Origin: a virus | Virus record (IMG/VR): IMGVR_UViG_3300032213_001988 | Location: 32,001-96,000 of that record | Direction: 5' to 3' (one strand) | DNA length: 64,000 nucleotides | In this document: positions 34,268 to 51,110 of the stretch, piece by piece | Numbering within the stretch: position 1 is the first letter of the stretch | Layout of the letters: each line of letters opens with the position of its first letter | The notes under the pieces: model-generated | Seen by the model: only the letters and a program-made list of their open reading frames with translations | Told to the model about the DNA's origin: nothing | Databases searched by the model: none | Made by a program: the position numbers and the translations under genes

Positions 34268-37200
34268 TTAGGTTAATAGTCGAAGCATCTTACTTAACTC
34301 AGAGCTTATTTGGCTCTGGTTAAGGAAATCTCCTCCGGCCATATAGGAGCGTAGTCCTTCGGTAGCGACGTCCGCATCCTTTTTACCGATCTTAGTCTCC
34401 ACCCTCGTAATCATGTCATCGACAAGGTCACGTAGGGCAGGAGGTAGATCGCTAAATCTTACCTTTGTAGCTTCCGCTCCAAAAGGTAAAGGTAGATTGG
34501 CGATTGTCTCGCCTAGAGCACGTGCGCTCTCACGCACGTTAGTTAGAGCCTGTGGGTTAAGAGCTCCTGAGTCAATACGGTCAATGAGTCCGATAACATC
34601 TGTTGCAGAGCGAGCAGCCTCGATGTAGTCACCGGAGTTGCCTAGTCCTTCAGCCTCATTAACCTTGTCAAGAACGTTTTGTAGACCAGAATCGCCAATA
34701 TCCTGCTTTAGTCGAGCAAGAACTGTGCGAAACTTACCTTTAGCATCACGCGGTTGAGTCTTGCCAGATACGTATTTAGCCTCTGGCTCGGCAGTCTCAA
34801 CCGCTAATGCTTTTCCCAGGTCTTGGGACTCCTCGTTGTTGTAAGAAACCTCGCTCGTATGGCACCTAGGGCACGTGCAACCTTGCATACAACCGCACGG
34901 TTGTCCTACGCACCCTGGACAGATGCAACCGAAGTCCTTGCACATTCCGCATTCATCCATTGCAGCCTCTGTTGAAGCTGTAAGTGCAGGAATACGTGAA
35001 CGAAGACCTTCAACTGCAAAGGTAATCTCGTCTGAGGACATTGCCTTCCACTTTTCAGGGATGAGATCGGCACGGTCAAGAACGCGAGCGCGCTTCATGA
35101 TGTGACGACGGATTGCAGCACGCTTTGAAGCCTTGCCACGTCCGTAGGCTTGGATTGAATCCTTTAATGAATCAATGTTGGTAATTGGATAGGATCCGTC
35201 TGGTAGAGCCTTGCCTTCCTTGGCAAGCTTCTGACGTACCTCGCGTGAGATGTATCCGAATCCATCCTCGTAGTCTTCTGTTGGAAGAACACGAGATGAA
35301 AGCTCAGTTATTTGAGCTTGAAGCTCTGACCTTCTTTTTGCACGAATATCGGCAAAACGCAGGCGAGCGTCGTCAGCTTTGATTGAAAGCTCTGTTAGTT
35401 CTAACTGCTCAAGTTTTTGTACACGAGCAGCAAGTTCTGACACAGGGTCACTCTTCATCTTAGCCAGAGTGCTTGCGCCAGCGGCAACAAGTGCCATAAC
35501 CTGTCCTGATGCGACTCGGGCACGAGCAATAGGGAACCCAGGAACATTTACCTGGCAAACCGCTACTAGCTCAAGAGCACCCTTAATTGGGCGCCAGTCT
35601 CCTGAAGGAGCTGATGCGCGAAGGGCACGGATTTGCTCCGGAGTTGCGCTAGGGCGTAGTGCTCCAGCAACCCAGATGCCATAAGCATCTTCTCCAGCGT
35701 GAACATCTGATACAGCAGATCCTGTGTCGTCATAGTGACGAGCAGCTGCTGCGGCGCTTGCCTCAAGTGATGCGTGACCACCGGCAAGTGTTAGTTGACC
35801 TACAGGAACATCGGTTCCGTCGTCAGTGCGAACTACTCCTGTGTGGAAGTAGGCGTATTTGCTCTTTGAGCGTGGTGGCTTGGTTCCATATGCTAGGCCA
35901 ATGTGATCTACATGCCATGCAGCAATGTGACCAAACACCTGACCTTCATCCGTAACTGTAAGTGGTGTTGCCTTCTTAAGTTCTGGATTTACAAACCAGC
36001 TCTTTGGTGGGGTGACGGGGATTGCTCCAGCAACGAAACCGCATGCGACTAGCGACGCTGCTTCTGCCGGATCCACATCTTCCACATAGACTCCGTCAGG
36101 AATCACATCATCCTCCTGTATCTCATTTTCTTCCTCAACGAGGAAAATCTTGCATTCTTGGAATGCAGGCTTAGGCACCATAGTAACTCCCATAACGCGT
36201 GCCTTAGTAATGTCCATTTTACCATTACCAACTTTACCTGGCTTATCTTCTCCAGCCTTTAGTTCTTCTTCTTGTGCTTCAAACATATCCATGTCGGCTG
36301 AAACTCCACGGATAAAACCTTCGCGAACTAGACGTTCGGCTTCCTTACCATATTCACCAGTATCAAACACGCCCTTTGCGTTTCCAATACCTTGCTCAAC
36401 GCGTTCCATAGTCTCAATGCGGCCTACGACTACAGAGCCCATGTGACCTTCGCCAGTCTTGATCTGCCACATCAAAGGAAGAGGTAGCTCGCGTAGGTTA
36501 ATTGAATCTTTTCTAAACTTGCGGCCATCGCCTGACTCAATTCCTTCAGGTATAACAAGAGGAATGGTAAACTTTGCGCCTGGTGTTTCGTGCCCTGTTG
36601 CAACTAGGCCCATACGAGATCGAGCCTCATTTGCACGAGCAGATAGAGCTGCTTTTTCAATCATCTCTTCAGAGCTTACAACAACATCGGTGCTAAATGA
36701 GTTGCGGCCTTTTCCTTTTCTACCATAAAGTTGACGATGTTCCTTGTCGCCTGTCCACATTCCGGTCATTTCCTTATGACGGAGTGAGCAGTATCCTTTT
36801 GCGCGTGGACCCATGTACTTTGAAAGTTGACGTACACAACGTGTCCAGTCGCCTCCAGTGTTCCAGCGAATCTTCATTCCACCCTTGCCAATAGTCCAAT
36901 AACGACGTAAGGCTTCAGCGTTTCCACGATTACGGTCAAGGCCACCAGCTGCAGTTAACGTTGGCCCCCATAGAACAGTAAGAATGTGGTCTACATCTTC
37001 AGAGACGTAGATAGACGCTGTGACCGTGTTTGTGTCAATCTGTGTTAATACGTCCTGCAGCGTCTCGCTATCAAGAGGTACAACTGGCGGAGGTGTCGCC
37101 GAGTTAAGATCTGAGATGATGCCTTCATCACGAACCCACTCTGCCTCAACTCGCTTGTAAGCCATTGGAAGATTTGATTTAGAGCTAGCAGGAACTAGTG

Positions 37201-39115
37201 CAATTAGATCCATCACAGCGCGAGGATCATCTGGAGAAACAAGAGCCATGAACAACGGCTGAACGTCAGAGTTATCCGGTGTTAGTTCAACAGCAGCGGC
37301 TGAGGACATCATTCCTGATGCTCTAGTCACTGGCTGATACCAAAGACGATTTGGATAGGTAGTCTCACCAGTTTTCTTGTTTACAATTTTTTTATTTAAC
37401 CACGACTTAAGAAGAGGGTGATCATACGCATCAAGAGTAAGCGTTTTGCCTGTCATCTTTAGGATGTCAGCGCCCTTAGTGCCAGAGATGTCAGGTGTAC
37501 CAGCTCTATCAAGAGGAGTTGCACCTGCTGGAGCCTTGGTTGGAGTCTGCGTAGATGGTTTTGGCGCTCCTGGGACTGTTGTTCCTGGTTGCGCAGTAAT
37601 AGAAGAGCCTGGAGCTACTGGCGCAGGTGTATTTAACGGCTTAAACTGATCTCGTTGCGATTTAACCCAGGCTGGCCAGTTATTAACAATCTCCGACATG
37701 TCACTTGGGCGTAGCGCAGGTAAAGTTCCAGGGATTTGAACGTTTGGACGGTCAATCGGTGTACGTGGTTGCGCAAGTATCCCTGTAGTGTCAAAAGCAG
37801 GAGTGTCAACAGTCTCTCTTGAGATCGCGCCGATGTACTTGTCAACCTTTTCAGTTGATTGCGCTGGCACATCAGCGGTTGTTCCATTATCAAATTGAAT
37901 CTTAACTGTATTAGCGTCAGGGTTAATCGCACGGATTGTTCCGACGCCATTTTGGACGTCACCTCCGACAACAACACGAGATCCTTGCGACGCAAACCGA
38001 CCTGACGCATCACGAACTTGACGCGCTGCGTTCTTAGCGCGCTCCTCGGGTGAGTACTGGCCATCTCCTTCAGCAGGAGCTGCTACAGGAGCAGGTGCTG
38101 CTACCATTGCGCTGTCAACATAATCCCAGTCGACTTCATTCATTGCACGTGCGACTAGGTGAGCCTCGTCGTAGTCAATGTCTTCAACAGAAACGTATCT
38201 GTCAGGGTTTTGCTGTAGTCGTGCTGAGATAATTATTGCAGAGTCTGGGTCAATTACAACGTGCGACTTCTCAACGTAGTCATCTACGTCATCAAGCTCA
38301 CTGTCGTATAGATAAACATCTCCGTTGTATAAGCCTAAGTCGTCCCAGCCTAAACCGTCCCAGACATAAACGCTGCTATCAAAATCAATCTTGTAAAGGC
38401 GGTCCATGCCGGTGCCGTCAAGTCGTACTCGAGCAAGAAACTCTGGTGCAGTCATTGCTGGCTTCTCTAGAGCTTCTTTAAATGCGTCTAAGTCAGAGGT
38501 GTAAAGACGCGGTGCGTCATACTCGCTAATATCCTGTTGATGACCAGGAAGAATATAGCCATCAGCAGTTAGAGATTTTTTGTTTTCGCGTTCTACGATT
38601 GCTTGCGCCCATCGCCATCCCGCGTCGCCGCCCCAGAGAGCCCACGCAATACGCCCACGAGAAGGAAAGCCCTTTTCACCTGGCTGGTATCCTTGCGCCT
38701 TCTTATCAATCTCATGACGAGGAAAATACTTCGCAATATGACGGACCTTTTCGATCCCGATCTGCCCTCCCTTAGCAAGAGTGCGCGCGGTGTTGAGCCC
38801 AACTGGTGTACCTCCTCGCTTATGTTCTTTTCTCCATTCAATACCTTTTTTAGCTTCAACCTGAACTCCGCGAGGAATCGTGTACATACGTCCTGACGCA
38901 ACGATAACCTTAATTTCTAGGTCTGCTAAAGCACCTTGTGCAAGATCAAACATTGCCTGAGGAATATCGTCAGAGCAAGGCGTCCAGCTGCTAGATGAAA
39001 ACATCTGCTCTGCGTTACCAGTCTCGATGACAAGGTTAACGTTCTTGTCTATTACGACAGCGTTATCTCCACTTTGGAATAAAACTAGTGAGTCATTAAC
39101 TCCAAGTATATTCAC
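34268..39115 (-). CDS. Multidomain capsid maturation protease polyprotein
   Basis: ESGDGRKF..LPLPLMWQ..GH..VVGRI..RGVSAD protease core; FGHIAAW..HYD..GIWVAG; KALPDGSYPI (DUF6582-like); Cys-rich segment. Confidence 0.8.
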   Translation of the reverse strand: MNILGVNDSLVLFQSGDNAVVIDKNVNLVIETGNAEQMFSSSSWTPCSDDIPQAMFDLAQGALADLEIKVIVASGRMYTIPRGVQVEAKKGIEWRKEHKRGGTPVGLNTARTLAKGGQIGIEKVRHIAKYFPRHEIDKKAQGYQPGEKGFPSRGRIAWALWGGDAGWRWAQAIVERENKKSLTADGYILPGHQQDISEYDAPRLYTSDLDAFKEALEKPAMTAPEFLARVRLDGTGMDRLYKIDFDSSVYVWDGLGWDDLGLYNGDVYLYDSELDDVDDYVEKSHVVIDPDSAIIISARLQQNPDRYVSVEDIDYDEAHLVARAMNEVDWDYVDSAMVAAPAPVAAPAEGDGQYSPEERAKNAARQVRDASGRFASQGSRVVVGGDVQNGVGTIRAINPDANTVKIQFDNGTTADVPAQSTEKVDKYIGAISRETVDTPAFDTTGILAQPRTPIDRPNVQIPGTLPALRPSDMSEIVNNWPAWVKSQRDQFKPLNTPAPVAPGSSITAQPGTTVPGAPKPSTQTPTKAPAGATPLDRAGTPDISGTKGADILKMTGKTLTLDAYDHPLLKSWLNKKIVNKKTGETTYPNRLWYQPVTRASGMMSSAAAVELTPDNSDVQPLFMALVSPDDPRAVMDLIALVPASSKSNLPMAYKRVEAEWVRDEGIISDLNSATPPPVVPLDSETLQDVLTQIDTNTVTASIYVSEDVDHILTVLWGPTLTAAGGLDRNRGNAEALRRYWTIGKGGMKIRWNTGGDWTRCVRQLSKYMGPRAKGYCSLRHKEMTGMWTGDKEHRQLYGRKGKGRNSFSTDVVVSSEEMIEKAALSARANEARSRMGLVATGHETPGAKFTIPLVIPEGIESGDGRKFRKDSINLRELPLPLMWQIKTGEGHMGSVVVGRIETMERVEQGIGNAKGVFDTGEYGKEAERLVREGFIRGVSADMDMFEAQEEELKAGEDKPGKVGNGKMDITKARVMGVTMVPKPAFQECKIFLVEEENEIQEDDVIPDGVYVEDVDPAEAASLVACGFVAGAIPVTPPKSWFVNPELKKATPLTVTDEGQVFGHIAAWHVDHIGLAYGTKPPRSKSKYAYFHTGVVRTDDGTDVPVGQLTLAGGHASLEASAAAAARHYDDTGSAVSDVHAGEDAYGIWVAGALRPSATPEQIRALRASAPSGDWRPIKGALELVAVCQVNVPGFPIARARVASGQVMALVAAGASTLAKMKSDPVSELAARVQKLEQLELTELSIKADDARLRFADIRAKRRSELQAQITELSSRVLPTEDYEDGFGYISREVRQKLAKEGKALPDGSYPITNIDSLKDSIQAYGRGKASKRAAIRRHIMKRARVLDRADLIPEKWKAMSSDEITFAVEGLRSRIPALTASTEAAMDECGMCKDFGCICPGCVGQPCGCMQGCTCPRCHTSEVSYNNEESQDLGKALAVETAEPEAKYVSGKTQPRDAKGKFRTVLARLKQDIGDSGLQNVLDKVNEAEGLGNSGDYIEAARSATDVIGLIDRIDSGALNPQALTNVRESARALGETIANLPLPFGAEATKVRFSDLPPALRDLVDDMITRVETKIGKKDADVATEGLRSYMAGGDFLNQSQISSELSKMLRLLT

Positions 39116-40174
39116 TTACTCTTCCTCCGTAATAGGTCCACCAACAACCCACGCGTTACATGTACGAGATGCCGCACACTTGAAATCTAAAGCTTCGCAG
39201 TACCCAAGCTCTGCCGCGTCAACCGCGTCCCAGGCGTTATCACTTGAGGATCCACCTTGCTCAATACCAGTTGTAATACAGTCAAGCATCTTAGGAGTAC
39301 GAATAAACATTACACAGTTTCCACATGTGCTCTTTCGTGCCTCGTCACCAGAGACTCCCCAGCGTGTTCCTTTATCGTCCCAGAACTCATCGTTTGGCTC
39401 GTTTGGATTTAGTGGGCCGTAGCCTGCGTTCTTAATTGCATATTCACGATTTTCAAGATTAACAACAATGTCCTGTGTTGCGGGAGGGCAGTCACCATCT
39501 GCAGCTGCAGTAATAGGCTCGGACTCTTCGTCCTCGTATTGCGCGGTGTCTTCCGTGGTAAGAGTTTCATCATTACCCTCAGCCATATCGTAGATTTTTA
39601 TAAACTTAGGTGTTACCTCATGAACCTCTAGCCCGTCGATTGACTCGTCGTCTGCAGGTAGCTTAAACCATCCGCGATTTGAGCGGGTGTACATTCCAGC
39701 CTCTGATGAGTAGATTAAGTATTTAACCTCTTGAGACTCGGTGTCAACTGCTGCGTAAAGATTATCCTCTGGAGCAGGCGCGTTGGGAGTAAACGCTAGT
39801 TTTACATCTGCCATGTACATCTCCTCTAGTGCCTCAGCAGGGACGGTAGTCCGAAGGCTTGAAGCCCATCTACCATCTGTGTCTTGAAATGCTCGTACTG
39901 TATAAATCTTACCGTAACTTGAGAAAGTTATGTCGCCTCTCGACTCATTTACACGCACATCTTCAGGCCGAACAAGTGGGTAGTAACGTATGCCGTCAAT
40001 AGTTGAGGCTCCTGCGTGAGGCTTGTCGTCAATCATCTCGACGTGAACTCCGTAGACCGGTTGAAGCATGACCTGTCCATCTTCACCTTTAACTGTCATA
40101 ACCGCAGGACCGGCTAGAAAGCCTTCATCAGTCTTCCACGCTGCCTCATCTGTAAACTTCAATTTATTTATCAC
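39116..40174 (-). CDS. Head-module protein with C-terminal Cys-rich domain
   Basis: CGNC..F..C..GYC..FKC..RTCNAW..GGP. Confidence 0.7.
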   Translation of the reverse strand: MINKLKFTDEAAWKTDEGFLAGPAVMTVKGEDGQVMLQPVYGVHVEMIDDKPHAGASTIDGIRYYPLVRPEDVRVNESRGDITFSSYGKIYTVRAFQDTDGRWASSLRTTVPAEALEEMYMADVKLAFTPNAPAPEDNLYAAVDTESQEVKYLIYSSEAGMYTRSNRGWFKLPADDESIDGLEVHEVTPKFIKIYDMAEGNDETLTTEDTAQYEDEESEPITAAADGDCPPATQDIVVNLENREYAIKNAGYGPLNPNEPNDEFWDDKGTRWGVSGDEARKSTCGNCVMFIRTPKMLDCITTGIEQGGSSSDNAWDAVDAAELGYCEALDFKCAASRTCNAWVVGGPITEEE

Positions 40175-43100
40175 GACTTAGATGCTCCTGTTCCGGTAAT
40201 GATAACCTCCTCGATAGGACGTCCTCCGATGTAGTTAATTCCTCTAGCCTTTAGCCCCTCAATGACGCCCACATGAACTTCCTTTGAGACTACCATCACG
40301 TCAAGATCTTCCCAGGAGAGTCTTTGCTTAAACATAACCTCGTAGGCTCCAACCTGCGCAGCAGATATAACGTCCTTGTTCTTTGAGCGCTTGCCAAAGG
40401 CATCGGTGTAGTTTGCATAGAAGTCTAAACGTTGATACACCTTCTTAGGGTCAAAGTATAGTGTAGGCACCCAGTCGGTAGTTCCGTATCTCTTTCTATC
40501 AGCACTTTTTACCGGGCGAGTAAACACGTAGTCAGCGCCACCAGTTCCAATATCAGCCGCGCTTGACTGACCGTTAACTCCAATTCCTTCTGTCCAGCGT
40601 GTTGTTGTTGAGAGAAGGCCTCCCTGTGGGTTATCAATGAATCCTACTATCCAGTCTGTCATTGCCTTTACTTTTTGCTCGTCACTCATGCTGTATTCAA
40701 GAACGCCAGGATTACGAAGGCCGTGACTCATAGCCTCTGGCTTGCCAGTTGCCTCCCAGATCTTTAACGCGCCTTCCTCAGAAAGGCGATATTCAATTCT
40801 TCCTGATGGGCCTGTCGTTACGATAACGTCGTCTACAGTTAGTCCCCACTTGTCCTTTACCTTTTCAAGACTTTCTGTTCTTGCCGCACCCTTAGGGTTT
40901 GTGTTCGCATCTGTCTTAGCATCAAAGATACTCATCAAGCGATTTTCAATAAGAACCTTTGCGTCTGCTGGTGTTGCAGGACGCACCTGACTTACTCCTG
41001 CTAGAGCTAGTGCGTTAGCAATCTGATCATCGGTGGCACCTGCTGGCGCTTGAATCTGCACCGTGTTGTGAAAGGCGCGAGCCGGAGCTCCACCGTATCC
41101 TTTTGAGAATGTGTCAGACGCGTCTGGATTAGCACGATGAATATAGATAACAATTCCGTCCTTTGTAGTAATCTTATAAGTTCTTCCTGTTGGGCTTTCA
41201 TAGGCTGTCTCAGATGCAGATAGATCTCCTACTCCGTCCTTGCCTACAGTTATTCTTGGAATACGTAGCTTACTGACTTCTATACCTGCGTCTGCTCTTT
41301 CCTGCTCAGTCATGCTTGCAATATCAGCGACTTTTCTCTTACCGGCCCAGTTCGTAAGCTTAAACTTTAGTTGAATGCCATCCACGCCTTCAGCGTTACG
41401 CACGTGCATAACTCGAACATCTAGGTCTTCAATTGAGTCTGCGTCAACAGCTGCAGACGCTCCACGCATTGCAGCTTTTTTGTCACCTGTGTCAAGAGCC
41501 TTTGCTATTGCGTCTGGAAGGGCAGGTACTGTCTCAAAGTTAGATAATGACCAGTCAGCTGGGCTGTCAACAATTACTGGCTCAGCGCCAGCGCCAGTTG
41601 CCTTTGTTGTAGACTTTTTAGTTGTAGGTCCCTTAAAGTTTTCATCGAGTGTATTTGTAGATTTTAGGGTCTTTCCTGAGCGCCACTTTACTACGCCATT
41701 TCCAAAGTCTACGAAGGCGTAGTTGTCCTTATTGACTTTTAGCACGGTACCAATTACGCCGTCCTTGTCTGCAACCTTTACTCCTGCAAAGATCTGATTA
41801 CCAGTAGAATCAGCAATTGCTGTAAACCCATCAGGTACTTCAAGTTCATCAGTTGCGTCTACATCTTCTATAGGTTCTGACTCGGTACCGAAAGGCTCAG
41901 ACTTGTTTTGAGCTATCTTTTCAAGCAGCGCATCATTTTCTTCCTTGGTTGGCTGACGCCACTGAAATACCTCAATGCCGTTTCCGCCAGGCTCAAAGAA
42001 ATCAGGTTTAGAGTCAGGAGTGTAATTTGTCTTTTTCTTTGCATCAATGATGTATACAGTCTCGCCATCAGGGGTTGCAGCAATCATTCCGTCTTTCTCA
42101 TGAACTGCAAGGATCTTTCCACCCTCTGGCATTCCGTATGAGAAAAGCTTAACTAGTTCGTTTGCTGCATCATTAAGAATAGGCTCGGTTGGGAAAGGAG
42201 TACTTGGAGATGGCTTGGTTGCTGCTGGCGTTACTTTTTCTCCAGCTGCAATTTCATCGCTAATATCAACTATGCCAGGAGCGACTATGTCGGTAATTGC
42301 TGAGATGACGTCTGCGTCTTCTGCCTCAGACCAGTCAACAAGACCTTCCTCATCTATAGCATCACGTATCTGATCTGCCTTTTCCTTAGAGATCTTAGTG
42401 CCTTGAGCGTCTAGTAGATCTAGTATCATCTTTGAGTGAGCTTGGATTTTTTTATTATCGGTGTAGATGTCACCGTAGAACTCTTCAGGCACAAAGTCTT
42501 CATCAAGAACTGACTTGTACTCTTTTGCAAAGTCGTCCATCTTGTCAAGTGGTACCTCTACTGTAATTTCATCAACGCCATCAACATCTAACTTAGAATC
42601 AACTACATACGGCAAAACTTCTTCGTATCCAGCAGGTCCGTTACTATTAGGATTAAAAGGACGAGTCCCGTCGTGAACAAACGACACGCGAACTTTCTTA
42701 CCATCTTCAGTTAGTTGCGCAGTTGGTTCAAACTGACCAATGTCATCTTGCGGAGTTTCTGGTGTTGGCGCTTCTGGAGCTTCTGGCTCGGGAGCGTCCG
42801 GAGCCTCAGGGGCTTTTGGGCCTTCGCCACCACCGCCATCGCCATCAATAACTGTTAGATACTTAGTGCTAAACACCTTGGGTTTGCCACCATCTGACAT
42901 CTTAACCCAGACGTAGCCTGAGTTCTTGTCGTAGCGTGAGAGTACTCCTTCAAGAACCTCACCCTTCTTCTCATAGCGAATTTTTGCGCCTGGCTCAATA
43001 GGCGTTCCATTTTTATCCTTATAAGGATTTGTCACAGACTCAGTTGCGACTGGCTCTGGCGCTTCAGCAGGCGCTGTTGGCTCTGGCGCTGCAGGAGTGC

Positions 43101-46100
43101 TCTTATCATTATCTTCTTCAATGTAGTCTTTTAGAACGCGTAGTTGCTCATCAATATCATCTACGTTATTCATTAGACCAATATCATCTTTATCCCAGTC
43201 ATAGGTGTCAAGCATACCGCGTAGCTCTTCAAGAACTCCTGGTAGCTCTTCATCAGAGATCTCGCCGTTACGCCAGTCAACTAACGCAGTGTCGATTTGA
43301 TCTGCAACTGCTTGGAACGCCTTTCGGTATACTGCAAGTTGTTTTTCGTCATCAGCGTACTCTTGTGCCCAACCACCAGCAGTATCAAGTGCGCTGTCAA
43401 TCTCTGCTTTCTTTCCTTCGGGAGTTTGAACTGCCTCTGGGTCTGTGTCCTGCTCTTTGCTAATATCTGCGTTGTCAACTACAATAGATGTGTCCTCACT
43501 AAGGAGGTCGTATCTATCAAGAATAAACTGGCGACGAGCCTTTAGCTTATCCTTTATCTCTTGCGCTGCTTCTGTGTCTGTGACAATTCCATCAACCATT
43601 GAGTCAATGTCATCGTTTGATATGTCAAGAAGCTTGCGGGCTGACTCCTTCTGTTGCTCATCGGTCATTGAACCAAATACAGCAGCAGACTGTGGATTCA
43701 TGCTAGGGTCACGCAGCGTGTCTAGTTCATTGACATCATTGCCAAACAAGGATCCCTTAGGTTTACCCATAGCGCGGAACAAAAGCGCTCCACCTGGGTC
43801 CACACGGACTGGATTACCACTGCCATCGGACATTACGTTATCAAATCCTAAACCTGCAACGTCCCAGTTTCCAAGCCACGCATCAACTGCAAAGCCTTCC
43901 TGCAACTTAGCAAGATACTCTGGGTTGTTTAATTGTTCCTGTAGATCTTGTTTTGATCCAATAATGTCTGGAGAGAACGTCATCTTAACTCCGTCATCTC
44001 CACTGCCAATTCCAATGTCCGCTGCATCAACTTTTAGAAGTTTATAGAACGCGGCAGCAAGAACTTCGTTCTGTGCGTGCAACTCTGACTTAGGCTTCTT
44101 TACATAGAAGCGATTTCCTTCAGCGTCTTCGTAGAAGCCACCTTCATTAGAACCAAGCTGTGGGCCAACCTTCTTCCAGCCTTCCATGTCGTACTCTGTT
44201 GAAAGTTCTTCAACTATGGAGTTAACTGGGTTGTCTACACTTTGTTCTACAGGCTCGGCTTCTTCATCAGACGCCTGTGCCTCTGGGTCTGCGTTTGCAA
44301 TATCATCAAGCAACGCATTTGTGTCAACACCTTGAATCTGCAAAGCATCACGAATAAGTTCTACGGCAACAGTGACTTCTTTCTCGTCTTCCCACTCAAG
44401 AACAACCTCGCCTGAACCATCTTCAATTGCTTGTCTAAATGATTCAGCGAGAACGTCACGGTCGTAGCTGCGTGCAACAGCATCGGGCTTGTCTTCAAAA
44501 TCGTCAGGGAAATCCTGTTCTGCTCTTGATTCGTATCGAGCAGGGTCAATCTTGTGGTAGCCTTCTGGCATCTCTGGAGATGCGTTATCCTTTATCAAAA
44601 GTTCATTGTATGAAGTGTCAAGTCCTTCGAGTACGGCATCGCGCTTTGACAGCATTTCAATTTCAACCTTAAAGACTTTTCTACCACTTGAGGTAGTTGT
44701 CTCTTTAACTTCTACTATCTTAAAGTTTCCTAGCATTCTGTGCTCTTGCTCGTTAAAGGTAGATATCGTTGTTAGGTCAACTGATCTTCCTTTGTTAGGC
44801 TTTACTGTGAAGACGATTGATGTCTTATCAGTCGAATTAGAAAGCGCGCCTGCAAAGATCGAGGCGTTAATATCACTCGTTGAGAACGAACGCGCATCAA
44901 ATGCTAAAACGTCACCATTCTTAATTTTTTCTATAAGAGGGCTGTCGTTTGGCACCTGTAGGCCTCGGTGCAATGACACCTGGTTGTATCGAGAGGACTC
45001 AGTCATAAGTCTAAAGAAAGCGCCTGCAAATGATGTGTCGCTGTCAATAGATTCTCTTCCATCGATTAAAGCCTGCTTTGACTTAATAAGATCATTTATG
45101 CTTCCATTTTTGTCAAAGAACTCTTTTACCTCTGACCACTCAGCAGAGCCGTTGTACTTTTTAATTGCAGCGTAGACGCCGTTGGCTAGTCTAGTCCTTT
45201 CAACGCCATCACTAATTCCCTCATCAAGAGCAGTGATAGTTGCCCACAGAGCTTGGAATGCTTGCTTCTCTTCAGGAGTAGCGTCTGGGTTGAGCGCACC
45301 TCCGATATAGTCATCTAGTAATTTTTCAAGATCCTCTGAGATAGCAGAGTCGTTGTCATTTACAGGATTTCCCTTTGCTTTTCTAATTACATCTGCAAGT
45401 TCTACAATCTTAGGGTTTGGCTCGCCGTTTCTGTTGAGCTCCATTAGCTGTGATACAAGTGCAGATCCTGAGTCTGCAAGCGCAACATCAACGTTTGCTC
45501 TTGCGATAGCCTCTGCGTCCTCTGGGTCAATCGCGTCAAGCAATGGCGTTTCAGCTTGAACGTTCTCCTCCTTGCGAAGAGACTTAAGAAGGTCTTGGTT
45601 CTTGCTCTCGCCTAAGCCCGCGTCGTAGAGTTGCGCGAGTAAAAGGTCAGCGTCGTATCCTTGCTTCTTAAGCGCAAGATAGATTGCCTCTACTGGAACC
45701 CACTCTTCACCGTTATTAAAATCAAGAGCGCCAACACCTAGACCAACAGGTTTAGCTACTGGCTTCTTTTTCTTAGGGCCAGGCTTTCCTGGTTTCTTTT
45801 CAATAGGATCACCGTTGTCATCAACTTCTTCGTCGTCGCCATCATCCTCAAGGAGATCTAGCGCGTAATCTTTCTTACCAACGATACCTTGGATAAAACC
45901 GTCAACAAGCGCATCGGTTCCAAACTTGTTTGCAATAACTTCTGGATCATCTGAGAAGTCAGGACTCATCTCATCGTCAACGCGACCTTCAGGCTCAAAT
46001 GCCTCAGGAGCTTTTAACTTCCACGCACCTTCAGGAGGCGTAAGCTTTGAGATAACAGATGTTTCAGGTTCAGCAGCTGGAGCTGAGGGAGCTTCAGGGA

Positions 46101-47796
46101 GTTTTGCGATAACTTCGTCGTCTCCTGGACGAGGAAAGGCGATAGTTTCTTTCCACCAAGGATTTGCTGGGTCATGCAGTAAACTTTCGTGGTCACCAAC
46201 CCAGTTAACAACATCTGGGATCTTTGCTTCAGCTTCTTCCCAGGTGTCATAGCCTAGAGCGTTTCCATCCTTGTTAAACCAAGAAGCGCGATGACCAAAA
46301 TTGATCTGTCCTTTGCTGTTAACCTCAGCAATTATTTGAACTTGATTTTTTCCGTCTGCACTTGGAACAAGCTTTTGGAATGATCTAATCTCAGGAGCTC
46401 CGTCAACTGAATACTTGCTGATTGCAAGTTCCCAGCCGGCAGGAATGTCGCGGCCTTCAATGTCCTTGCCTTGTTCAAGCATAGCTTCAAACTTGTCAAC
46501 TTCCTCGTTGTGCTTTAATCTTTTTTCTTTAAAGAAAGCGTCATCGGCTGCTTTTTTGTCTTCCTGCACCTTAAGGATTTCTTTTGAGGATTCTGGCATC
46601 TTGTCATAAGGATCAACCTCAGAACCTGGAAGAACATCTGCATTTTGTGGCGCAGACATGATGCGCTTAAACTTGTCGTAGTCTTTTTCATCTGCGTTAG
46701 CAAGATCCTGTACCTGTGCCCAGTCATCAACTTGCTCGCCAACCTGTGCGCCCTTGTCACCGTTCTTGTCCTTGCGGAACAGTGTAAGCTTTCCATCAGA
46801 CTCTTCTACAATGTAGTCGTCGTCAGAACCAAATGAACCATCTTCATTTTTCTTCCAGCCGAAAGGTGCGTCCATACGCATCTTAATCATGTCTTCCTTA
46901 GAGAAGATCTGCGCTCTCTTATCAAAGATAGACGAAAGCTTTCCTGTAAGTTTTCCAGCAACACTGTCTGGCAGAAGTGCCTTATACTCCTGAGCGTTAC
47001 TTGACTCTACTGGGTAAATACCGTCTGGTAGATTTGCGTCACCCTTAACTTGAACGAGTCCACGCTTACCATCAACACCAATAAACTTTCCATTGATAGG
47101 AACGTTGTTCCCACCGATGTTAATCTTGAAGCCGATACCACGACCCATTTCAATCCAGCGACCTAAACGGTCACGCCATTGTAGATTTGCACGTGCGCTA
47201 CGAGCAGCAGATGAATTGCCGGAGCCAAAGCTAAATGCAGCAGTAAGAGCTGATAGATAGATCTCGCGAGGAACTCCTCCTGCGACAAGAACTTGTAGAG
47301 ATGCAATTGCATGTGAGTACTCTGTTGAACTTCTGTCATAGAAGTATGCTGCTGCGACAATCTCTCTTGCTTCATCGTCAACACGTGGGTCTGCTGCGAT
47401 CCAACGAGAACGAGCGTGACGCAACGCTGAGGCAGTCATCGAGTTAGCGCGAGATGCTAAAGGGTGTCCTACTGGAAGTAGATCTCTATATGATACCTGT
47501 GAGTCAGTAGATATCTCTCCGGTGCATGCAAGACTAATAAAGGATGAAACTTCCTTATAGGCAACAAACTGACGAGTCTTTGTCTCTAGGCTTGCTGTCT
47601 TTGCCAGCGAGCGCTCTGCAACTAAAAAGACAGCCTGTTGAGAAACGCGACGCTCTGCAGGTACCTTTGCGTTTTCAGCTGCTGCAAGGTTGCGTAGCGA
47701 CTGGCGAAATGACGTCTTGCTTCCACGAACGTTTGCCTTAGGAACAACCTTAGCCTTTTCTCTGTGTGAGATAAGTTCGTTAATTAGCTCGTACAT
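40171..47796 (-). CDS. Giant head-associated protein with ADP-ribosyltransferase, HipA/PI3K-like kinase and second putative ART domain
   Basis: LHRG..SFSTS..NEQE; GPQLGSNEGG..YVKK..NEVLA..DAWLGNWD..DN..RVDPGG; HG..GGLLST..GADYVF..EVMF. Confidence 0.75.
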   Translation of the reverse strand: MYELINELISHREKAKVVPKANVRGSKTSFRQSLRNLAAAENAKVPAERRVSQQAVFLVAERSLAKTASLETKTRQFVAYKEVSSFISLACTGEISTDSQVSYRDLLPVGHPLASRANSMTASALRHARSRWIAADPRVDDEAREIVAAAYFYDRSSTEYSHAIASLQVLVAGGVPREIYLSALTAAFSFGSGNSSAARSARANLQWRDRLGRWIEMGRGIGFKINIGGNNVPINGKFIGVDGKRGLVQVKGDANLPDGIYPVESSNAQEYKALLPDSVAGKLTGKLSSIFDKRAQIFSKEDMIKMRMDAPFGWKKNEDGSFGSDDDYIVEESDGKLTLFRKDKNGDKGAQVGEQVDDWAQVQDLANADEKDYDKFKRIMSAPQNADVLPGSEVDPYDKMPESSKEILKVQEDKKAADDAFFKEKRLKHNEEVDKFEAMLEQGKDIEGRDIPAGWELAISKYSVDGAPEIRSFQKLVPSADGKNQVQIIAEVNSKGQINFGHRASWFNKDGNALGYDTWEEAEAKIPDVVNWVGDHESLLHDPANPWWKETIAFPRPGDDEVIAKLPEAPSAPAAEPETSVISKLTPPEGAWKLKAPEAFEPEGRVDDEMSPDFSDDPEVIANKFGTDALVDGFIQGIVGKKDYALDLLEDDGDDEEVDDNGDPIEKKPGKPGPKKKKPVAKPVGLGVGALDFNNGEEWVPVEAIYLALKKQGYDADLLLAQLYDAGLGESKNQDLLKSLRKEENVQAETPLLDAIDPEDAEAIARANVDVALADSGSALVSQLMELNRNGEPNPKIVELADVIRKAKGNPVNDNDSAISEDLEKLLDDYIGGALNPDATPEEKQAFQALWATITALDEGISDGVERTRLANGVYAAIKKYNGSAEWSEVKEFFDKNGSINDLIKSKQALIDGRESIDSDTSFAGAFFRLMTESSRYNQVSLHRGLQVPNDSPLIEKIKNGDVLAFDARSFSTSDINASIFAGALSNSTDKTSIVFTVKPNKGRSVDLTTISTFNEQEHRMLGNFKIVEVKETTTSSGRKVFKVEIEMLSKRDAVLEGLDTSYNELLIKDNASPEMPEGYHKIDPARYESRAEQDFPDDFEDKPDAVARSYDRDVLAESFRQAIEDGSGEVVLEWEDEKEVTVAVELIRDALQIQGVDTNALLDDIANADPEAQASDEEAEPVEQSVDNPVNSIVEELSTEYDMEGWKKVGPQLGSNEGGFYEDAEGNRFYVKKPKSELHAQNEVLAAAFYKLLKVDAADIGIGSGDDGVKMTFSPDIIGSKQDLQEQLNNPEYLAKLQEGFAVDAWLGNWDVAGLGFDNVMSDGSGNPVRVDPGGALLFRAMGKPKGSLFGNDVNELDTLRDPSMNPQSAAVFGSMTDEQQKESARKLLDISNDDIDSMVDGIVTDTEAAQEIKDKLKARRQFILDRYDLLSEDTSIVVDNADISKEQDTDPEAVQTPEGKKAEIDSALDTAGGWAQEYADDEKQLAVYRKAFQAVADQIDTALVDWRNGEISDEELPGVLEELRGMLDTYDWDKDDIGLMNNVDDIDEQLRVLKDYIEEDNDKSTPAAPEPTAPAEAPEPVATESVTNPYKDKNGTPIEPGAKIRYEKKGEVLEGVLSRYDKNSGYVWVKMSDGGKPKVFSTKYLTVIDGDGGGGEGPKAPEAPDAPEPEAPEAPTPETPQDDIGQFEPTAQLTEDGKKVRVSFVHDGTRPFNPNSNGPAGYEEVLPYVVDSKLDVDGVDEITVEVPLDKMDDFAKEYKSVLDEDFVPEEFYGDIYTDNKKIQAHSKMILDLLDAQGTKISKEKADQIRDAIDEEGLVDWSEAEDADVISAITDIVAPGIVDISDEIAAGEKVTPAATKPSPSTPFPTEPILNDAANELVKLFSYGMPEGGKILAVHEKDGMIAATPDGETVYIIDAKKKTNYTPDSKPDFFEPGGNGIEVFQWRQPTKEENDALLEKIAQNKSEPFGTESEPIEDVDATDELEVPDGFTAIADSTGNQIFAGVKVADKDGVIGTVLKVNKDNYAFVDFGNGVVKWRSGKTLKSTNTLDENFKGPTTKKSTTKATGAGAEPVIVDSPADWSLSNFETVPALPDAIAKALDTGDKKAAMRGASAAVDADSIEDLDVRVMHVRNAEGVDGIQLKFKLTNWAGKRKVADIASMTEQERADAGIEVSKLRIPRITVGKDGVGDLSASETAYESPTGRTYKITTKDGIVIYIHRANPDASDTFSKGYGGAPARAFHNTVQIQAPAGATDDQIANALALAGVSQVRPATPADAKVLIENRLMSIFDAKTDANTNPKGAARTESLEKVKDKWGLTVDDVIVTTGPSGRIEYRLSEEGALKIWEATGKPEAMSHGLRNPGVLEYSMSDEQKVKAMTDWIVGFIDNPQGGLLSTTTRWTEGIGVNGQSSAADIGTGGADYVFTRPVKSADRKRYGTTDWVPTLYFDPKKVYQRLDFYANYTDAFGKRSKNKDVISAAQVGAYEVMFKQRLSWEDLDVMVVSKEVHVGVIEGLKARGINYIGGRPIEEVIITGTGASKS

Positions 47797-48888
47797 TTAC
47801 TCGGTCTCCTTAACTGGCAAAAGGTCTGCGTCTTTTGACCCATAGAGAGCAGACGCAAGAACTGCTGCTCGATCAAATGGAGACTCGTTGTCACGTATGG
47901 CACGTAGCCAGGTTGCGCGTAGCGCTGGAACAATTTCATAACCTTGACCAGATAGCTCAGCCATCGCAAGTATGGCGTGCTCTGGTGAGTGATAATCTTC
48001 TTCATTCTGTAGTTCAACGTATAGCTCTTGGCTAGCATAGAGTGATGCAATGATTGAGGCATCACCTTTACTTGAGCGTGGATGCTTTGCTGGCAAAAGA
48101 TCATTGTCCTGCTTGTAGTTTGGATTTGCAGGACGCCCACTCTTTAATAAACGTAGGAACGCATTAACGCGAGCAAACGCCCAGCCGTCTCTTGTCATCC
48201 CTGGTCTGTGCGAGCTTGAGAACGCACCGGCGCCGCGACGATACACAGCCTTTAACATTCCAAGAGTTGCCTTACGACCTTCAGGCGCTTTCTCGTTGTG
48301 CTTCTTTACCTTCTCACGAAGAGTTGCCTCTGTTCGAGCGCTAAATACAATTTTCTTTCCACCCTTAGCAGATCCCTTAGGATTTTTCTTTGAGCCGTAG
48401 ATGCGATCTTTCTTTGGAGCAGGGCGAGATCCGGCAGCGGTAATCTGACTGTCTTCAACTTGAACAACACCATCAGGGATAACTGCAAAACGGCACTTGC
48501 CATCATCTTCAATTGGCTGTGCAATAATCTTACAAACGCCAGGGCCTTCATACAAAACGCAGTTGATGCACTTAACACCAATTTCCTTGTATTCGTTTTC
48601 TGCGGCAGGCGTGTACCCTGCCCAGATTCCTGTGCGGTCCTCGTTAAACTTTCCGTGCTTTTCAGCAATTTCTAAGAGTGCCTGAGCAAGGTCTTGCTCT
48701 TCAGCAACAATAATCCCTGCAGCTGTAAGCGAGTCTGCAAAATCCTTTGGCACACAGTTGGGAACCATGTTCCCGTTCTTGCCCTTCTTCATACCGACTT
48801 GCTTATACCCGTCCCAGCAAGGACTCTTACCGGCAGCAGTAATAGCTGCTTCTTCTTCGTCTAAGAGAGTAACCCAGTCTTGTGCCAT
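47797..48888 (-). CDS. Head-module multidomain protein (CWxGY motif, HiPIP-like Cys4, DUF5824-like); start corrected to MAQDW
   Basis: CWDGYKQVGMKK..VPNCVP; CINC-x8-C-x12-C; AVYRRG..SHRPG..WAFARVNAFL; ATG 2 nt after dps stop. Confidence 0.7.
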   Translation of the reverse strand: MAQDWVTLLDEEEAAITAAGKSPCWDGYKQVGMKKGKNGNMVPNCVPKDFADSLTAAGIIVAEEQDLAQALLEIAEKHGKFNEDRTGIWAGYTPAAENEYKEIGVKCINCVLYEGPGVCKIIAQPIEDDGKCRFAVIPDGVVQVEDSQITAAGSRPAPKKDRIYGSKKNPKGSAKGGKKIVFSARTEATLREKVKKHNEKAPEGRKATLGMLKAVYRRGAGAFSSSHRPGMTRDGWAFARVNAFLRLLKSGRPANPNYKQDNDLLPAKHPRSSKGDASIIASLYASQELYVELQNEEDYHSPEHAILAMAELSGQGYEIVPALRATWLRAIRDNESPFDRAAVLASALYGSKDADLLPVKETE

Positions 48889-48890
48889 GT

Positions 48891-49364
48891 TTAGAAACCG
48901 TAGTCTGATTTTTCTTCTGGTGTAAGGAATGCGTTTAACTGCCAACGCCACTTCTTGTGCATGTCAATACGACCACCGATGAAGTCAATAAGCCCTTGCT
49001 CGTTACTAGCATCTGCAATATCAAAGGTCATGTTAAGAGACGCCAGCAAGATGTCATTTGCATCGTAAAGGTCCTTACACATTGCCATAGCGTTTTGTCC
49101 AACCTGCGCATCTTGAATATCTGCCGAACGAGCAAACTCAACAAGACGGTAAGGAGACGGAGAACCTAGCTTGAGAATCTCTTCTGCTGTAGGGTCAATA
49201 GCGCTATAGATGTCTTCATAGATCTCGGCAAAGAAGTCATGAAACTGAGCAAAGTCACTACCAACAACATTCCAGTGATGTCCTTGAGCCTTAAAGTACA
49301 TAACAACTTCGTTACCTAGCAGCTTCTTCAGCGCTTCAACGAGTTGTGGATTTTCTATGGCCAT
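48891..49364 (-). CDS. dps: Dps / mini-ferritin
   Basis: HHWNVVG.DF..FH.FF.EIY..ID..AE.I..LG; DMHKKWRWQL. Confidence 0.88.
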   Translation of the reverse strand: MAIENPQLVEALKKLLGNEVVMYFKAQGHHWNVVGSDFAQFHDFFAEIYEDIYSAIDPTAEEILKLGSPSPYRLVEFARSADIQDAQVGQNAMAMCKDLYDANDILLASLNMTFDIADASNEQGLIDFIGGRIDMHKKWRWQLNAFLTPEEKSDYGF

Positions 49365-51110
49365 TTACTGTGCTCCTTCTTCCGTTGCTGGAGGCGGTGC
49401 TCCATTGCCTTGTGGGCCAGTTGGCGTCTCTGTCTCCGCTGCTTCTGCTGCAATCTGCTGTGGTCCCTTAAGAAGTCGTTCAACCTCTGGCGGAATTGGT
49501 GCAAGTGATGTTGCCTGTGATGCAAGACGAGTTGCCTTCATAACGTCAGGAGCAACTGCTGCAAGCATTGCCTCTGTGAGCTCAGGTGTGATTGCACCCT
49601 TCTCTCTAAGCAGACGTAGTGCAACCTCCGTAGGAGTTGGACCGTCCTGTTCTGTAAATCCGTGTGATCTGCGCCATGCATCTCCAGAGATAACTCCCCG
49701 GTCAAATCCAGCATCTGCGTCGGCGGCGCGGTCATTACGCGTAGCCACCTGTGATGGGTCATACCATACGCAGATGCGTTCTACCTGTGCTGGGTCGAAC
49801 CCATTTGCAATCAGGTAAGGACGCAGATAAACAACTGTAATAGCGTCTGCAATCAGAAGCATTAACGGTTCGATATGTGCTTTGTATAGTGACTCATCAA
49901 TTTGAAGAGCATTGGAATACTTAACGTTTGCAAGACCTGTAACGATGTCCTTTGGAACATCAAGGCCTTGTAAAATTCTTTCTAGAACACGATCTGCGCG
50001 TTGTGCAAGTGCTGGGTCAAATGAACGCTCAAACTTGAATTGTTTAATCTTGTCGCCAAGTTCTGCTGGACCACGAATAATAAGTGGAACAACCGCAGAC
50101 GCTGAATCCTCATCACGAATAGGCGTTGTCATCGCATCCATAAGTTGATCCTCGAACTCGTCAGCCGCCTCCTCAGGAGTGTAGGCTTGATTCATTGAGT
50201 CATCATCATCATACGGATAATCAGGATCTGGTGAACCTGCAACAGAAAGTCCGTCCGGAAGATACAAGGCGCCAGCATTTAGACGTGAGCGCGCTGTAGC
50301 ACGGAACGTTCTGTTGAGGAGAAGTAGTTCTGAGCAAAGATCTAACAAGCCACGTAGGCTCGAGTCTGCTTCATCGGAGTAGCGTGGGTGCGCTCGCCAG
50401 ATGCGACCGATAAACGCATTGTTTGGAAGTATAATTTGACCAGGTTGTTTTTGTCCCGTGTAGGAACCTGTTTCACGTCGAGGAATAATTGTGTAGGCAC
50501 CCTTTTGGTCAATCTGAATCTCATCGACTGAACGGATATCCCATGTCTCAGGAAGACCTTGTCCTATGCGCTCTGGAATTTGAACAAGGTAGCACTCGCC
50601 AGCTACTGCAAGGTTGAGTGCTGCATCGCGAAGAAGACCAGCCTGACCGCCGTATGCTGAGTCAAGACGCACGATTGCGCGCTCTGCCGCTGAGGCAAGA
50701 CGCTCATCGATGAGAGGACTGTTTCGAACTGGAAGTGGAGGCTCTGCAGGATTGTCAATTACTGCTGCAAAGATACGAATACGAGATATTACCGAGCCAA
50801 CTAGACTGAAGGCGTATTTAATTTCACCAATTGCATCATAGTATTCCCACGCCTCAGACTGCCAGGCGTTTGATCCTGATGTTCTGCGGCTACGGAATTG
50901 CTCGGCCTCACCTTTGTCATTAAGACGAAGTTGAGATGCTGCTGCGGTAAGTCCACGAGGAGCTGAGTACGCAACTGGCGATGCAAAACCTGGAATGGTT
51001 GCTATCGAGCTAAGGGAAAGAGCAGGCGAGTTGATTGCACGACGAGTAGCTGCAGCCGACCTAGGGCGCTGTGATCTGTTGCCGCTTGAATCGCGACTAA
51101 ATACTGCCAC
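49365..51110 (-). CDS. Portal protein
   Basis: WQSEAWEYYD.IGEI.Y..SRIRI; follows terminase module. Confidence 0.8.
   Translation of the reverse strand: MAVFSRDSSGNRSQRPRSAAATRRAINSPALSLSSIATIPGFASPVAYSAPRGLTAAASQLRLNDKGEAEQFRSRRTSGSNAWQSEAWEYYDAIGEIKYAFSLVGSVISRIRIFAAVIDNPAEPPLPVRNSPLIDERLASAAERAIVRLDSAYGGQAGLLRDAALNLAVAGECYLVQIPERIGQGLPETWDIRSVDEIQIDQKGAYTIIPRRETGSYTGQKQPGQIILPNNAFIGRIWRAHPRYSDEADSSLRGLLDLCSELLLLNRTFRATARSRLNAGALYLPDGLSVAGSPDPDYPYDDDDSMNQAYTPEEAADEFEDQLMDAMTTPIRDEDSASAVVPLIIRGPAELGDKIKQFKFERSFDPALAQRADRVLERILQGLDVPKDIVTGLANVKYSNALQIDESLYKAHIEPLMLLIADAITVVYLRPYLIANGFDPAQVERICVWYDPSQVATRNDRAADADAGFDRGVISGDAWRRSHGFTEQDGPTPTEVALRLLREKGAITPELTEAMLAAVAPDVMKATRLASQATSLAPIPPEVERLLKGPQQIAAEAAETETPTGPQGNGAPPPATEEGAQ

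Follow-up and report, generated by a model that had tools for sequence, protein, structure and literature searches.

The virus record IMGVR_UViG_3300032213_001988, from an uncultured, probable lake actinophage, is complete, with a length of 131,518 bp and direct terminal repeats, and its bases 32001-96000 make up the window of 64,000 nucleotides. The head operon in the window includes a gene for a protein of 2541 amino acids (aa), referred to here as the giant. Three enzyme domains are predicted in this protein: an ADP-ribosyltransferase (ART) of the R-S-E type (ART1), an atypical kinase resembling CtkA and HipA, and, at the extreme C-terminus, a second ART with a DarT-like fold (ART2), which is joined to an alpha+beta domain named cA. 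The giant is probably a polyvalent effector which is packaged in the head, ejected, and active with all three enzymes in the newly infected cell. Packaging and injection are suggested by the gene context; ejection, the activity and targets of the enzymes and a purpose in host takeover or anti-defence are likewise what we infer. An initial annotation, made from the sequence, had described an open frame of this length in a head operon with an R-S-E ART and a HipA/PI3K-like kinase, and both enzymes are borne out by the predicted folds and the conserved catalytic residues. Nevertheless, its picture of a multi-effector left out the C-terminal module of cA and the DarT-like ART, which is invariant and defines the family, and the R-S-E ART cannot be kept as the centrepiece, since this domain type is present in only 43 of 107 long relatives, the others carrying other cassettes.

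The three predicted enzymes

The region of aa 860-1470 was folded with an alignment of 27 relatives, with a mean predicted local distance difference test (pLDDT) score of 78. In this model ART1 shows the N-terminal helices and the split beta-sandwich core of R-S-E ARTs, and Foldseek retrieved the Vis toxin (E 2.7e-5) together with Certhrax, Plx2a, C3bot1, HopU1 and BECa. R944, S970-F-S972 and E1016-Q-E1018 lie on or beside predicted strands. Among 18 relatives of 35-90% identity, little or no variation is seen at R944, S970, F971, S1012, F1014, E1016 and E1018. The motifs LHRG (aa 942, 44962-44973), FSTS (aa 971, 44875-44886) and EQE (aa 1016, 44743-44751) are found exactly where they had first been placed, but the conserved S-x-S is S970-F-S972 (within RSFS), which overlaps FSTS, and not S972-T-S974. 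No match to PF03496 was obtained even at E<=1, either with the whole protein or with the domain alone. The ART1 profile did align with the PF03496-type ARTs of relatives (probability 56.7%, E 1.1e-4), R falling on R, S970-F-S972 on S-T-S and E-Q-E on E-x-E. As modelled, ART1 is a divergent R-S-ExE ADP-ribosyltransferase; since its nearest folds are arginine-specific and its motif is ExE, arginine is the best guess, by analogy, for the acceptor. The possibility that ART1 and ART2 are duplicates of one another was rejected (hhalign probability 0.3%).

The motifs of the kinase, announced initially at about 43500-44190, fall within the kinase domain. In the same model this domain has the HipA/CtkA/PI3-4K fold, and it keeps the ATP-binding Lys, the catalytic Asp...Asn and the metal-binding Asp. 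A set of 117 unique sequences shows no variation in the Gly-rich loop or at K1233, E1244, N1310, D1312, N1320 and D1333. The Pfam family HipA_C (PF07804) was not matched by the giant's kinase, and a relative of the MuF lineage described below (L068) matched it at E 2.1e-4 with 21.4 bits, below the cut-off of 30.5. No HipB or HipS antitoxin lies beside the kinase, the neighbours being head proteins of other families. The domain also stands alone, in proteins of ~228 aa, or is fused to just a PF03496 ART or a NUDIX domain, and in all of these proteins the kinase part has no Pfam label. It was further seen without ART2 in a 1213-aa protein annotated as 'ADP-ribosyltransferase' in ~90-kb phages of Pseudomonas (Jeremy, L003), Yersinia and Aeromonas, and in gp77 of Gordonia Forzavirus (Mareelih, L004), which follows the portal directly and has a separate ART gene two genes further on.

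The C-terminal model (aa 2050-2541) is confident and compact, with a pLDDT of 88.7 and a predicted template modelling score (pTM) of 0.89. Foldseek of this model against PDB and BFVD gave no match at E<=1e-3. In a full VIA fold search with aa 2340-2540 four DarT structures ranked at the top: ART2 has an ART fold which is closest to DarT structures, its nearest folds being the DNA-modifying DarT enzymes and the phosphate-acting Tpt1. Its H-Y-E triad is invariant in 32 sequences, down to 22% identity. The Pfam DarT family (PF14487) was matched neither in the giant nor in the genome, and one of the 32 relatives reached E 0.14; a DarG macrodomain or NADAR partner for ART2 was also missing from the complete 131.5-kb genome. 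Because there is no sequence-level link to DarT, ART2 is not called a DarT; from its predicted structure it is a new ART family with a DarT-like fold. The fold matches of cA are weak, and cA always accompanies ART2 in the long relatives.

Searches of Pfam and PHROGs with the whole giant and with ten pieces of it returned nothing significant, so that every domain of the giant is absent from both collections. No PDB sequence was matched by phmmer or by profiles of the whole family and of ART2, and a search of the ESM Atlas with aa 1-345 gave an uninformative best score of 0.75.

A conserved C-terminal module and its carriers

A first family set of 66 relatives, obtained by a word-indexed search, was mapped on the giant. 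The conserved blocks are aa 1-330, 560-1060, 1075-1170, 1203-1431 and 2065-2535, and insertions and deletions concentrate at ~aa 565 and at aa 1680-1860. A comparison of domain variability across relatives had been proposed with the initial annotation; once carried out, it gave a constant C-terminal module, swapped cassettes and these two hot spots. In distant members ART1 is replaced by RNase_T, NUDIX, a UvrD-type helicase, ArdC with MPTase-PolyVal, an ATLF-like peptidase, or one to three canonical PF03496/PF01129 ARTs; one of them (P0065) carries PF08401, PF18818, a helicase and RNase_T.

An exhaustive HMMER search with cA+ART2 alone as the query yielded 540 representative clusters (50% identity), 131 of them at E<=1e-30. 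In proteins of 2000-7004 aa the match nearly always occupies the very C-terminal end, with a tail of <=30 aa after it in 80 of 107 proteins. Among the 92 representatives with a length of 2000 aa or more, 82 have the kinase, 63 have an R-S-E ART of one or the other type, and 57 combine the two. An apparent co-occurrence of kinase and ART2 in every locus was discarded as partly an artefact, one of the scan patterns being itself a kinase motif; the re-measured count of 82/92 comes from the set retrieved by cA+ART2 alone, which avoids this bias. The largest members noted (P0173, P0158 and P0200) have 5763-7004 aa, and P0173 holds two kinase copies and three canonical ARTs. On one viral contig (L055, 3-17553) two giant genes lie in tandem, which read as ~3917 and ~1935 aa; both encode kinase, cA and ART2.

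On viral contigs L064-L074, which form a lineage of their own, and in bacterial genomes, kinase-(cA)-ART2 makes up the C-terminal two thirds of proteins of 1000-1700 aa. A MuF N-terminus (PF04233) was recognised in three of the four viral loci scanned (E 5.4e-25, 1.9e-18 and 2.5e-13), the fourth, L066, giving no PF04233 match. In L068 the N-terminus also matches phrog_220 (E 1.2e-97), which is named 'minor head protein and DNA pilot'; the gene comes directly after terminase and portal. The bacterial genomes with such MuF proteins include Endozoicomonas, Thalassotalea, Methyloversatilis, Halomonas, Flavobacteriales and Verrucomicrobiota; the MuF call in these loci rests on our own hidden Markov model (HMM) built from the viral MuF proteins, and the copies in bacterial genomes of several phyla are presumably prophage-borne. 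Culturable strains with a probable prophage of the MuF-kinase-ART2 type include Thalassotalea loyana LMG 22536 (L089), Methyloversatilis sp. XJ19-49 (L091) and Endozoicomonas atrinae WP70 (L092, L094 and L097). Proteins of the MuF/gp7 type are capsid-internal and associated with the portal. Of the evidence at hand, the fusion of kinase-ART2 to such proteins speaks most strongly for transport of the cargo inside the head. In this respect the comparison with MuF toxins drawn initially proved to be literal, distant relatives having the same kinase and C-terminal ART fused to a true MuF directly after the portal. In metagenome-assembled genomes of Saccharibacteria (TM7; L079-L087), kinase-ART2 proteins of ~730-1060 aa without a match to our MuF HMM were also observed, perhaps representing versions carried by prophages or other mobile elements in bacteria of the candidate phyla radiation.

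It is proposed that kinase, cA and ART2 are the ancestral, constant cargo of the family, and that ART1, the duplicated domain and the SH3-like repeats were acquired as cassettes in the lineage of the giant.

Domain layout and candidate maturation sites

The features of the giant and of its neighbourhood are collected in Table 1. The N-terminal part is shared with another head protein: aa 30-120 are paralogous to aa 183-311 of the 384-aa protein encoded directly upstream (p384; module HMM, iE 6e-8), and head-operon proteins therefore share N-terminal modules. The following RDxxGRW domain also opens the post-portal giant proteins of the Microbacterium phages Cece and Pumpernickel, and a weak match to it lies in the 1615-aa protease protein (HMM iE 0.011). 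The pattern RDxxG[RK][FW] was noted at aa 208 of the giant (47173-47193) and at aa 368 and 1456 of the 1615-aa protein, a similar beta-rich stretch following the first two of these sites (giant 208 and 1615-aa protein 368).

The duplicated ~100-aa domain and the two SH3-like repeats of the initial annotation were both recovered by hhalign, with a probability of 96.8% (E 2.4e-10) for copies A and B and of 95.1% (E 3.2e-8) for repeats a and b, ten unrelated segment pairs of the giant used as controls all remaining below 2%; self-BLASTP of the giant detected neither. Copies A and B flank ART1, and since they are adjacent in relatives without ART1, the latter looks like an insertion between them. 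The only fold hint for the SH3-like repeats is a weak match to the KorB_C beta-barrel (E 0.011). The acidic linkers are likewise visible in the composition, as acidic and Pro-rich segments at about aa 565-600, 650-680, 1565-1590 and 1651-1685.

The motif [LIVM][TV]A[AS] is a candidate site of the prohead protease. It is enriched in p384 (3 observed, P 5e-4, the copies being xTAA motifs), in the 1615-aa protease protein (6 observed, P<5e-4) and in the N-terminal extension of the major capsid protein (MCP; aa 202 and 243). In the giant it occurs at aa 120, 146 and 184 only (3 observed against 1.0 expected, P 0.08), and a motif scan found none in the inter-domain linkers. A cleavage into separate enzymes is therefore unsupported, the motif being neither enriched in the giant nor present in its linkers. 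As the only motifs of the giant lie in the N-terminal module, this module may be a propeptide or a capsid-targeting part. Should the motif be the protease site, cleavage would take away no more than an N-terminal propeptide, as in T4 Alt, and a mature protein of ~2350 aa would be left intact.

Table 1. Position of the giant, its domains and residues, and the neighbouring head genes in the window
Feature	Protein position (aa)	Window position	Strand	Basis or remark
Large terminase		52350-53747	-	Context
Portal		49365-51110	-	phrog_776, E 1.9e-109
Dps/ferritin-like protein		48891-49364	-	PF00210, E 2e-17; directly after portal
p384 (384 aa)		47797-48951	-	Head-operon protein, directly upstream of giant
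Giant gene (P0001)	2541 aa	40171-47796	-	Open frame including stop codon
N-terminal module	1-200	47197-47796	-	Conserved in relatives
RDxxGRW beta-rich domain	205-275	46972-47184	-	R208, D209, R210, G212 invariant
Variable acidic/helical region	345-585	46042-46764	-	Insertion hot spot in relatives, ~aa 565
Duplicated domain, copy A	585-735	45592-46044	-	hhalign; acidic/Lys-rich insert
ART1 (predicted)	869-1055	44632-45192	-	Predicted fold and motifs; four lead helices and beta core
ART1 arginine	R944	44965-44967	-	
ART1 serines	S970/S972		-	
ART1 glutamates	E1016 and E1018	44743-44751	-	
Duplicated domain, copy B	1070-1180	44257-44589	-	hhalign
Atypical kinase, CtkA/HipA/PI4K-like (predicted)	1200-1432	43501-44199	-	Predicted fold and motifs
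Kinase motifs	GSNEGG 1215 (G-S-N-x-G-G), K1233, E1244, NWD 1310-1312, DN 1319-1320, DPGG 1333 (D1333-x-G-G)			
SH3-like repeat a	1588-1652	42841-43035	-	hhalign
SH3-like repeat b	1990-2048	41653-41829	-	hhalign
cA, alpha+beta domain	2081-2335	40792-41556	-	Model; packed against ART2
ART2, second ART fold, nearest DarT (predicted)	2336-2541	40174-40791	-	Model
ART2 triad, histidine	H2358	40723-40725	-	
ART2 triad, tyrosine	Y2423	40528-40530	-	
ART2 triad, glutamate	E2486	40339-40341	-	
p352 (352 aa)		39116-40174	-	Context; directly downstream of giant
1615-aa protein with head-maturation-protease-like region		34268-39115	-	phrog_18402, E 2.3e-58
Major capsid protein		32116-34134	-	phrog_777, E 1.7e-74

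Head operon and source genome

The giant gene starts with an ATG that directly abuts the upstream gene's TAA, and AGGAG precedes this ATG by 9 nt. Its neighbours in the head operon all lie on the same strand, forming a tight co-directional operon, and the genes for the major tail protein and the head-tail adaptor belong to the same strand and cluster. The position between portal and protease, as given initially, is confirmed by the phrog_776 and phrog_18402 flanks. The order portal-(Dps)-p384-giant-p352-protease protein-MCP is kept in ~50 viral loci, and the synteny of the head module is strict over roughly 30-95% identity. The GTG start of p352 overlaps the TGA stop of the giant, a synteny kept in most relatives and shifted in position in some loci; p352 had no family match in the Pfam and PHROGs scan of the neighbours. 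A weak match of p384 to DUF5824 (E 2.2e-6) was seen, and the Dps/ferritin-like gene recurs at varying positions in related loci (L020, L025, L040 and L052). The 'Gratiaviridae', with a HipA-like kinase between portal and MCP, also have Dps (Benler et al. 2021, PMC8008677).

The nearest named relative is DSL-LC01, a metagenome-assembled Actinomycetia phage from Dishui Lake, in which a protein of 3289 aa occupies the same position as the giant and the operon order is also kept; its homologues of the 1615-aa protein are annotated as capsid maturation protease. The paper describing DSL-LC01 is silent on the 3289-aa protein (PMC10611076). Three WhiB-family genes were noted in the genome of our phage (G000:C1:121242-122145 and 34558-34761), and an actinobacterial host is indicated because of them. 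Contigs 85-99% identical across the whole giant gene occur in lake-water metagenomes of several studies, and the region of aa 345-585 is swapped out in lake-metagenome variants. In a 7969-nt contig from another lake study, 43075-43394 and 46067-46619 are replaced, corresponding to the linker after the kinase and to the variable N-terminal region, the remainder being ~91-93% identical.

A Pfam search of the complete genome found no Macro (PF01661), NADAR (PF08719) or ARH (PF03747) gene, which agrees with the initial remark that no immunity gene is obvious. For a lytic phage this lack of a visible reversal or immunity function is acceptable.

Proposed role and competing explanations

The giant would enter the prohead via its conserved N-terminal module, which the prohead protease may trim, and would leave the capsid with the DNA and work in the newly infected cell. 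There, ART1 would probably mono-ADP-ribosylate one or more host proteins, with arginine as the likely acceptor by analogy with HopU1, Tre1 and Vis, the CtkA/HipA-like kinase would phosphorylate host proteins, and the DarT-like ART2, welded to cA, would modify a target which could be a protein or a nucleic acid. Packaging is favoured by the location of the gene between the portal and the protease and MCP genes in a tight co-directional operon, and precedents for packaged effectors exist in T4 Alt and the polyvalent proteins (PMC5512222, PMC9503650). Moreover, the kinase of T7 is a broad anti-defence enzyme (PMC13645617), and a HipA-family kinase lies between portal and MCP in the 'Gratiaviridae' (PMC8008677). 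Several points weigh against delivery of three active enzymes. All three enzyme calls in the giant rest on predicted folds and motifs, and the candidate protease motifs are restricted to its first 190 residues. A MuF identity of its own N-terminus had to be rejected (hhalign of aa 1-585 against the MuF regions of L064-L073, probability 1.6%; no Pfam hit). A mature protein of ~2350 aa would need to be unfolded for passage through the tail, and late expression would also allow an action in the producing cell.

Such an action, in which the giant is made late and, undelivered, brings about a late shutdown of the host or its defences or superinfection exclusion, is considered unlikely. For a kinase at the same portal-MCP position, Benler et al. 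judged an early action unlikely and proposed a role of the superinfection-exclusion type (PMC8008677), and the giant gene does stand within a late operon of head genes. Nevertheless, the same kinase-ART2 cargo is fused to MuF, which is capsid-internal and portal-associated, the conserved N-terminal module is common to other head-operon proteins, and the strict synteny of the head module, over the range of roughly 30-95% identity, also speaks against it. The DarT-like module might instead act, with the kinase assisting, on the phage's own genome or particle rather than as an effector against host proteins, binding or ADP-ribosylating the DNA or the DNA end at the portal and so piloting it or protecting it from nucleases and restriction. 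The folds nearest to ART2 are DNA-modifying and phosphate-acting, cA-ART2 is invariant at the extreme C-terminus and joined to the MuF that PHROGs calls 'DNA pilot', and the genome encodes no reversing hydrolase, all of which would fit. DarT, however, acts on single-stranded DNA and needs NAD+, which is not expected inside capsids, while ART2 has no sequence-level DarT membership and a likeness of fold does not fix the substrate; on balance this explanation appears improbable too. Finally, the great size of the giant, its many linkers and repeats and its fixed place among morphogenesis genes would suit a mainly structural protein (internal core, scaffold or length-determining protein) whose enzyme-like domains are inactive relics. 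This is very hard to reconcile with the strict conservation of the catalytic residues of all three enzyme domains across very divergent sequences, and the turnover of cassettes is typical of conflict proteins, so that we give it next to no weight.

Beyond delivery as such, kinase, cA and ART2 could form a coupled and so far undescribed enzyme unit, delivered in the capsid on MuF or giant carriers by tailed phages of many bacterial phyla. In that case ART2 would represent a new ART family with an offensive use, directed at the DNA or RNA of the host, so that the roles of DarTG defence would be reversed, and the kinase would either make a phosphorylated acceptor, as in Tpt1-like chemistry, or lock the adduct against host hydrolases. 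Taken jointly, these propositions are speculative and rather doubtful.

Comparison with known systems

The closest match in general design is with the polyvalent proteins (Iyer, Burroughs, Anand, de Souza, Aravind 2017, PMC5512222), which are likewise giant multi-enzyme proteins encoded beside portal and terminase genes and predicted, as the giant is here, to be packaged and injected. The giant combines several effector-type domains in one polypeptide among the virion genes of a portal-terminase phage, and its relatives show the same combinatorial shuffling, including the hallmark ArdC and MPTase-PolyVal as well as NUDIX, helicases and ARTs. There are differences, however. R-S-E ARTs were reported not to occur in polyvalent proteins (PMC5512222), whereas they are common in the family of the giant (63/92 long relatives), and the constant ART of this family is of the DarT-like H-Y-E type, with no ART-PolyVal Pfam match. 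The polyvalent kinase is a modified Ser/Thr/Tyr kinase from prophages of Verrucomicrobia and Bacteroidetes (PMC5512222), while that of the giant is CtkA/HipA-like, the atypical Ser/Thr kinases HipA, HipT and CtkA being its nearest known systems. Furthermore, the family of the giant is constant at both ends and varies in the middle.

MuF-fused polymorphic toxins of (pro)phages were reportedly described by Jamet et al. in 2017. They occupy the same slot directly after the portal, and the distant relatives of the giant are true MuF fusions with its cargo; MuF-ART fusions have also been described (PMC9503650). Unlike these toxins, the giant has no detectable MuF, its C-terminal enzyme is constant and not polymorphic, and no recognisable immunity gene adjoins it. 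With regard to DarT of the DarTG systems, ART2 differs in having neither PF14487 membership nor a DarG or macrodomain partner, in being fused to cA, and in being encoded by a phage head operon and not as a host defence gene. T4 Alt owes its packaging to an N-terminal targeting segment, which is cut by the prohead protease, and is injected along with the DNA. Both T4 Alt and the giant contain an ART of the R-S-E clade encoded with virion genes, but ART1 falls below the PF03496 threshold, and the giant, about four times as large as Alt, carries two further enzymes. As for the HipA-family kinase of the 'Gratiaviridae', to which the giant's kinase is likened by description, it belongs to Bacteroidetes phages, lies beside an ATPase and a glycosyltransferase, and has no ART partner described (PMC8008677).

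Novelty and significance

The concept of polyvalent or MuF-borne capsid effectors is already known. What appears to be new is a family with a constant C-terminal cA and DarT-like H-Y-E ART, as well as the regular pairing of this cA-ART2 with a CtkA/HipA-like kinase; literature searches found no published description of a kinase-cA-ART2 family. The presence of R-S-E ARTs in genuine polyvalent proteins, contrary to PMC5512222, appears new, as does the occurrence of kinase and ART2, with or without MuF, across several bacterial phyla, cA being present in most. The absence of every domain from Pfam and PHROGs also appears to be a new feature.

The family outlined here is large and unnamed. It comprises at least 540 clusters (50% identity), with proteins of up to 7004 aa, and it ranges from lake actinophages to the genomes of Proteobacteria, Flavobacteriales, Verrucomicrobiota and Saccharibacteria, in which it is presumably carried by prophages. 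Enzymes delivered from the capsid are the first move of a phage against its host, before any phage gene is expressed, and to our knowledge T4 Alt and the N4 RNA polymerase are among the few that have been characterised. If ART2 modifies nucleic acids, phages would wield the chemistry of an anti-phage toxin as a weapon of their own, and if the kinase acts like that of T7, it would be a second broad anti-defence kinase, in this case packaged in advance. Since probable prophage copies exist in culturable strains, the delivery of kinase-ART2 can be put to the test.

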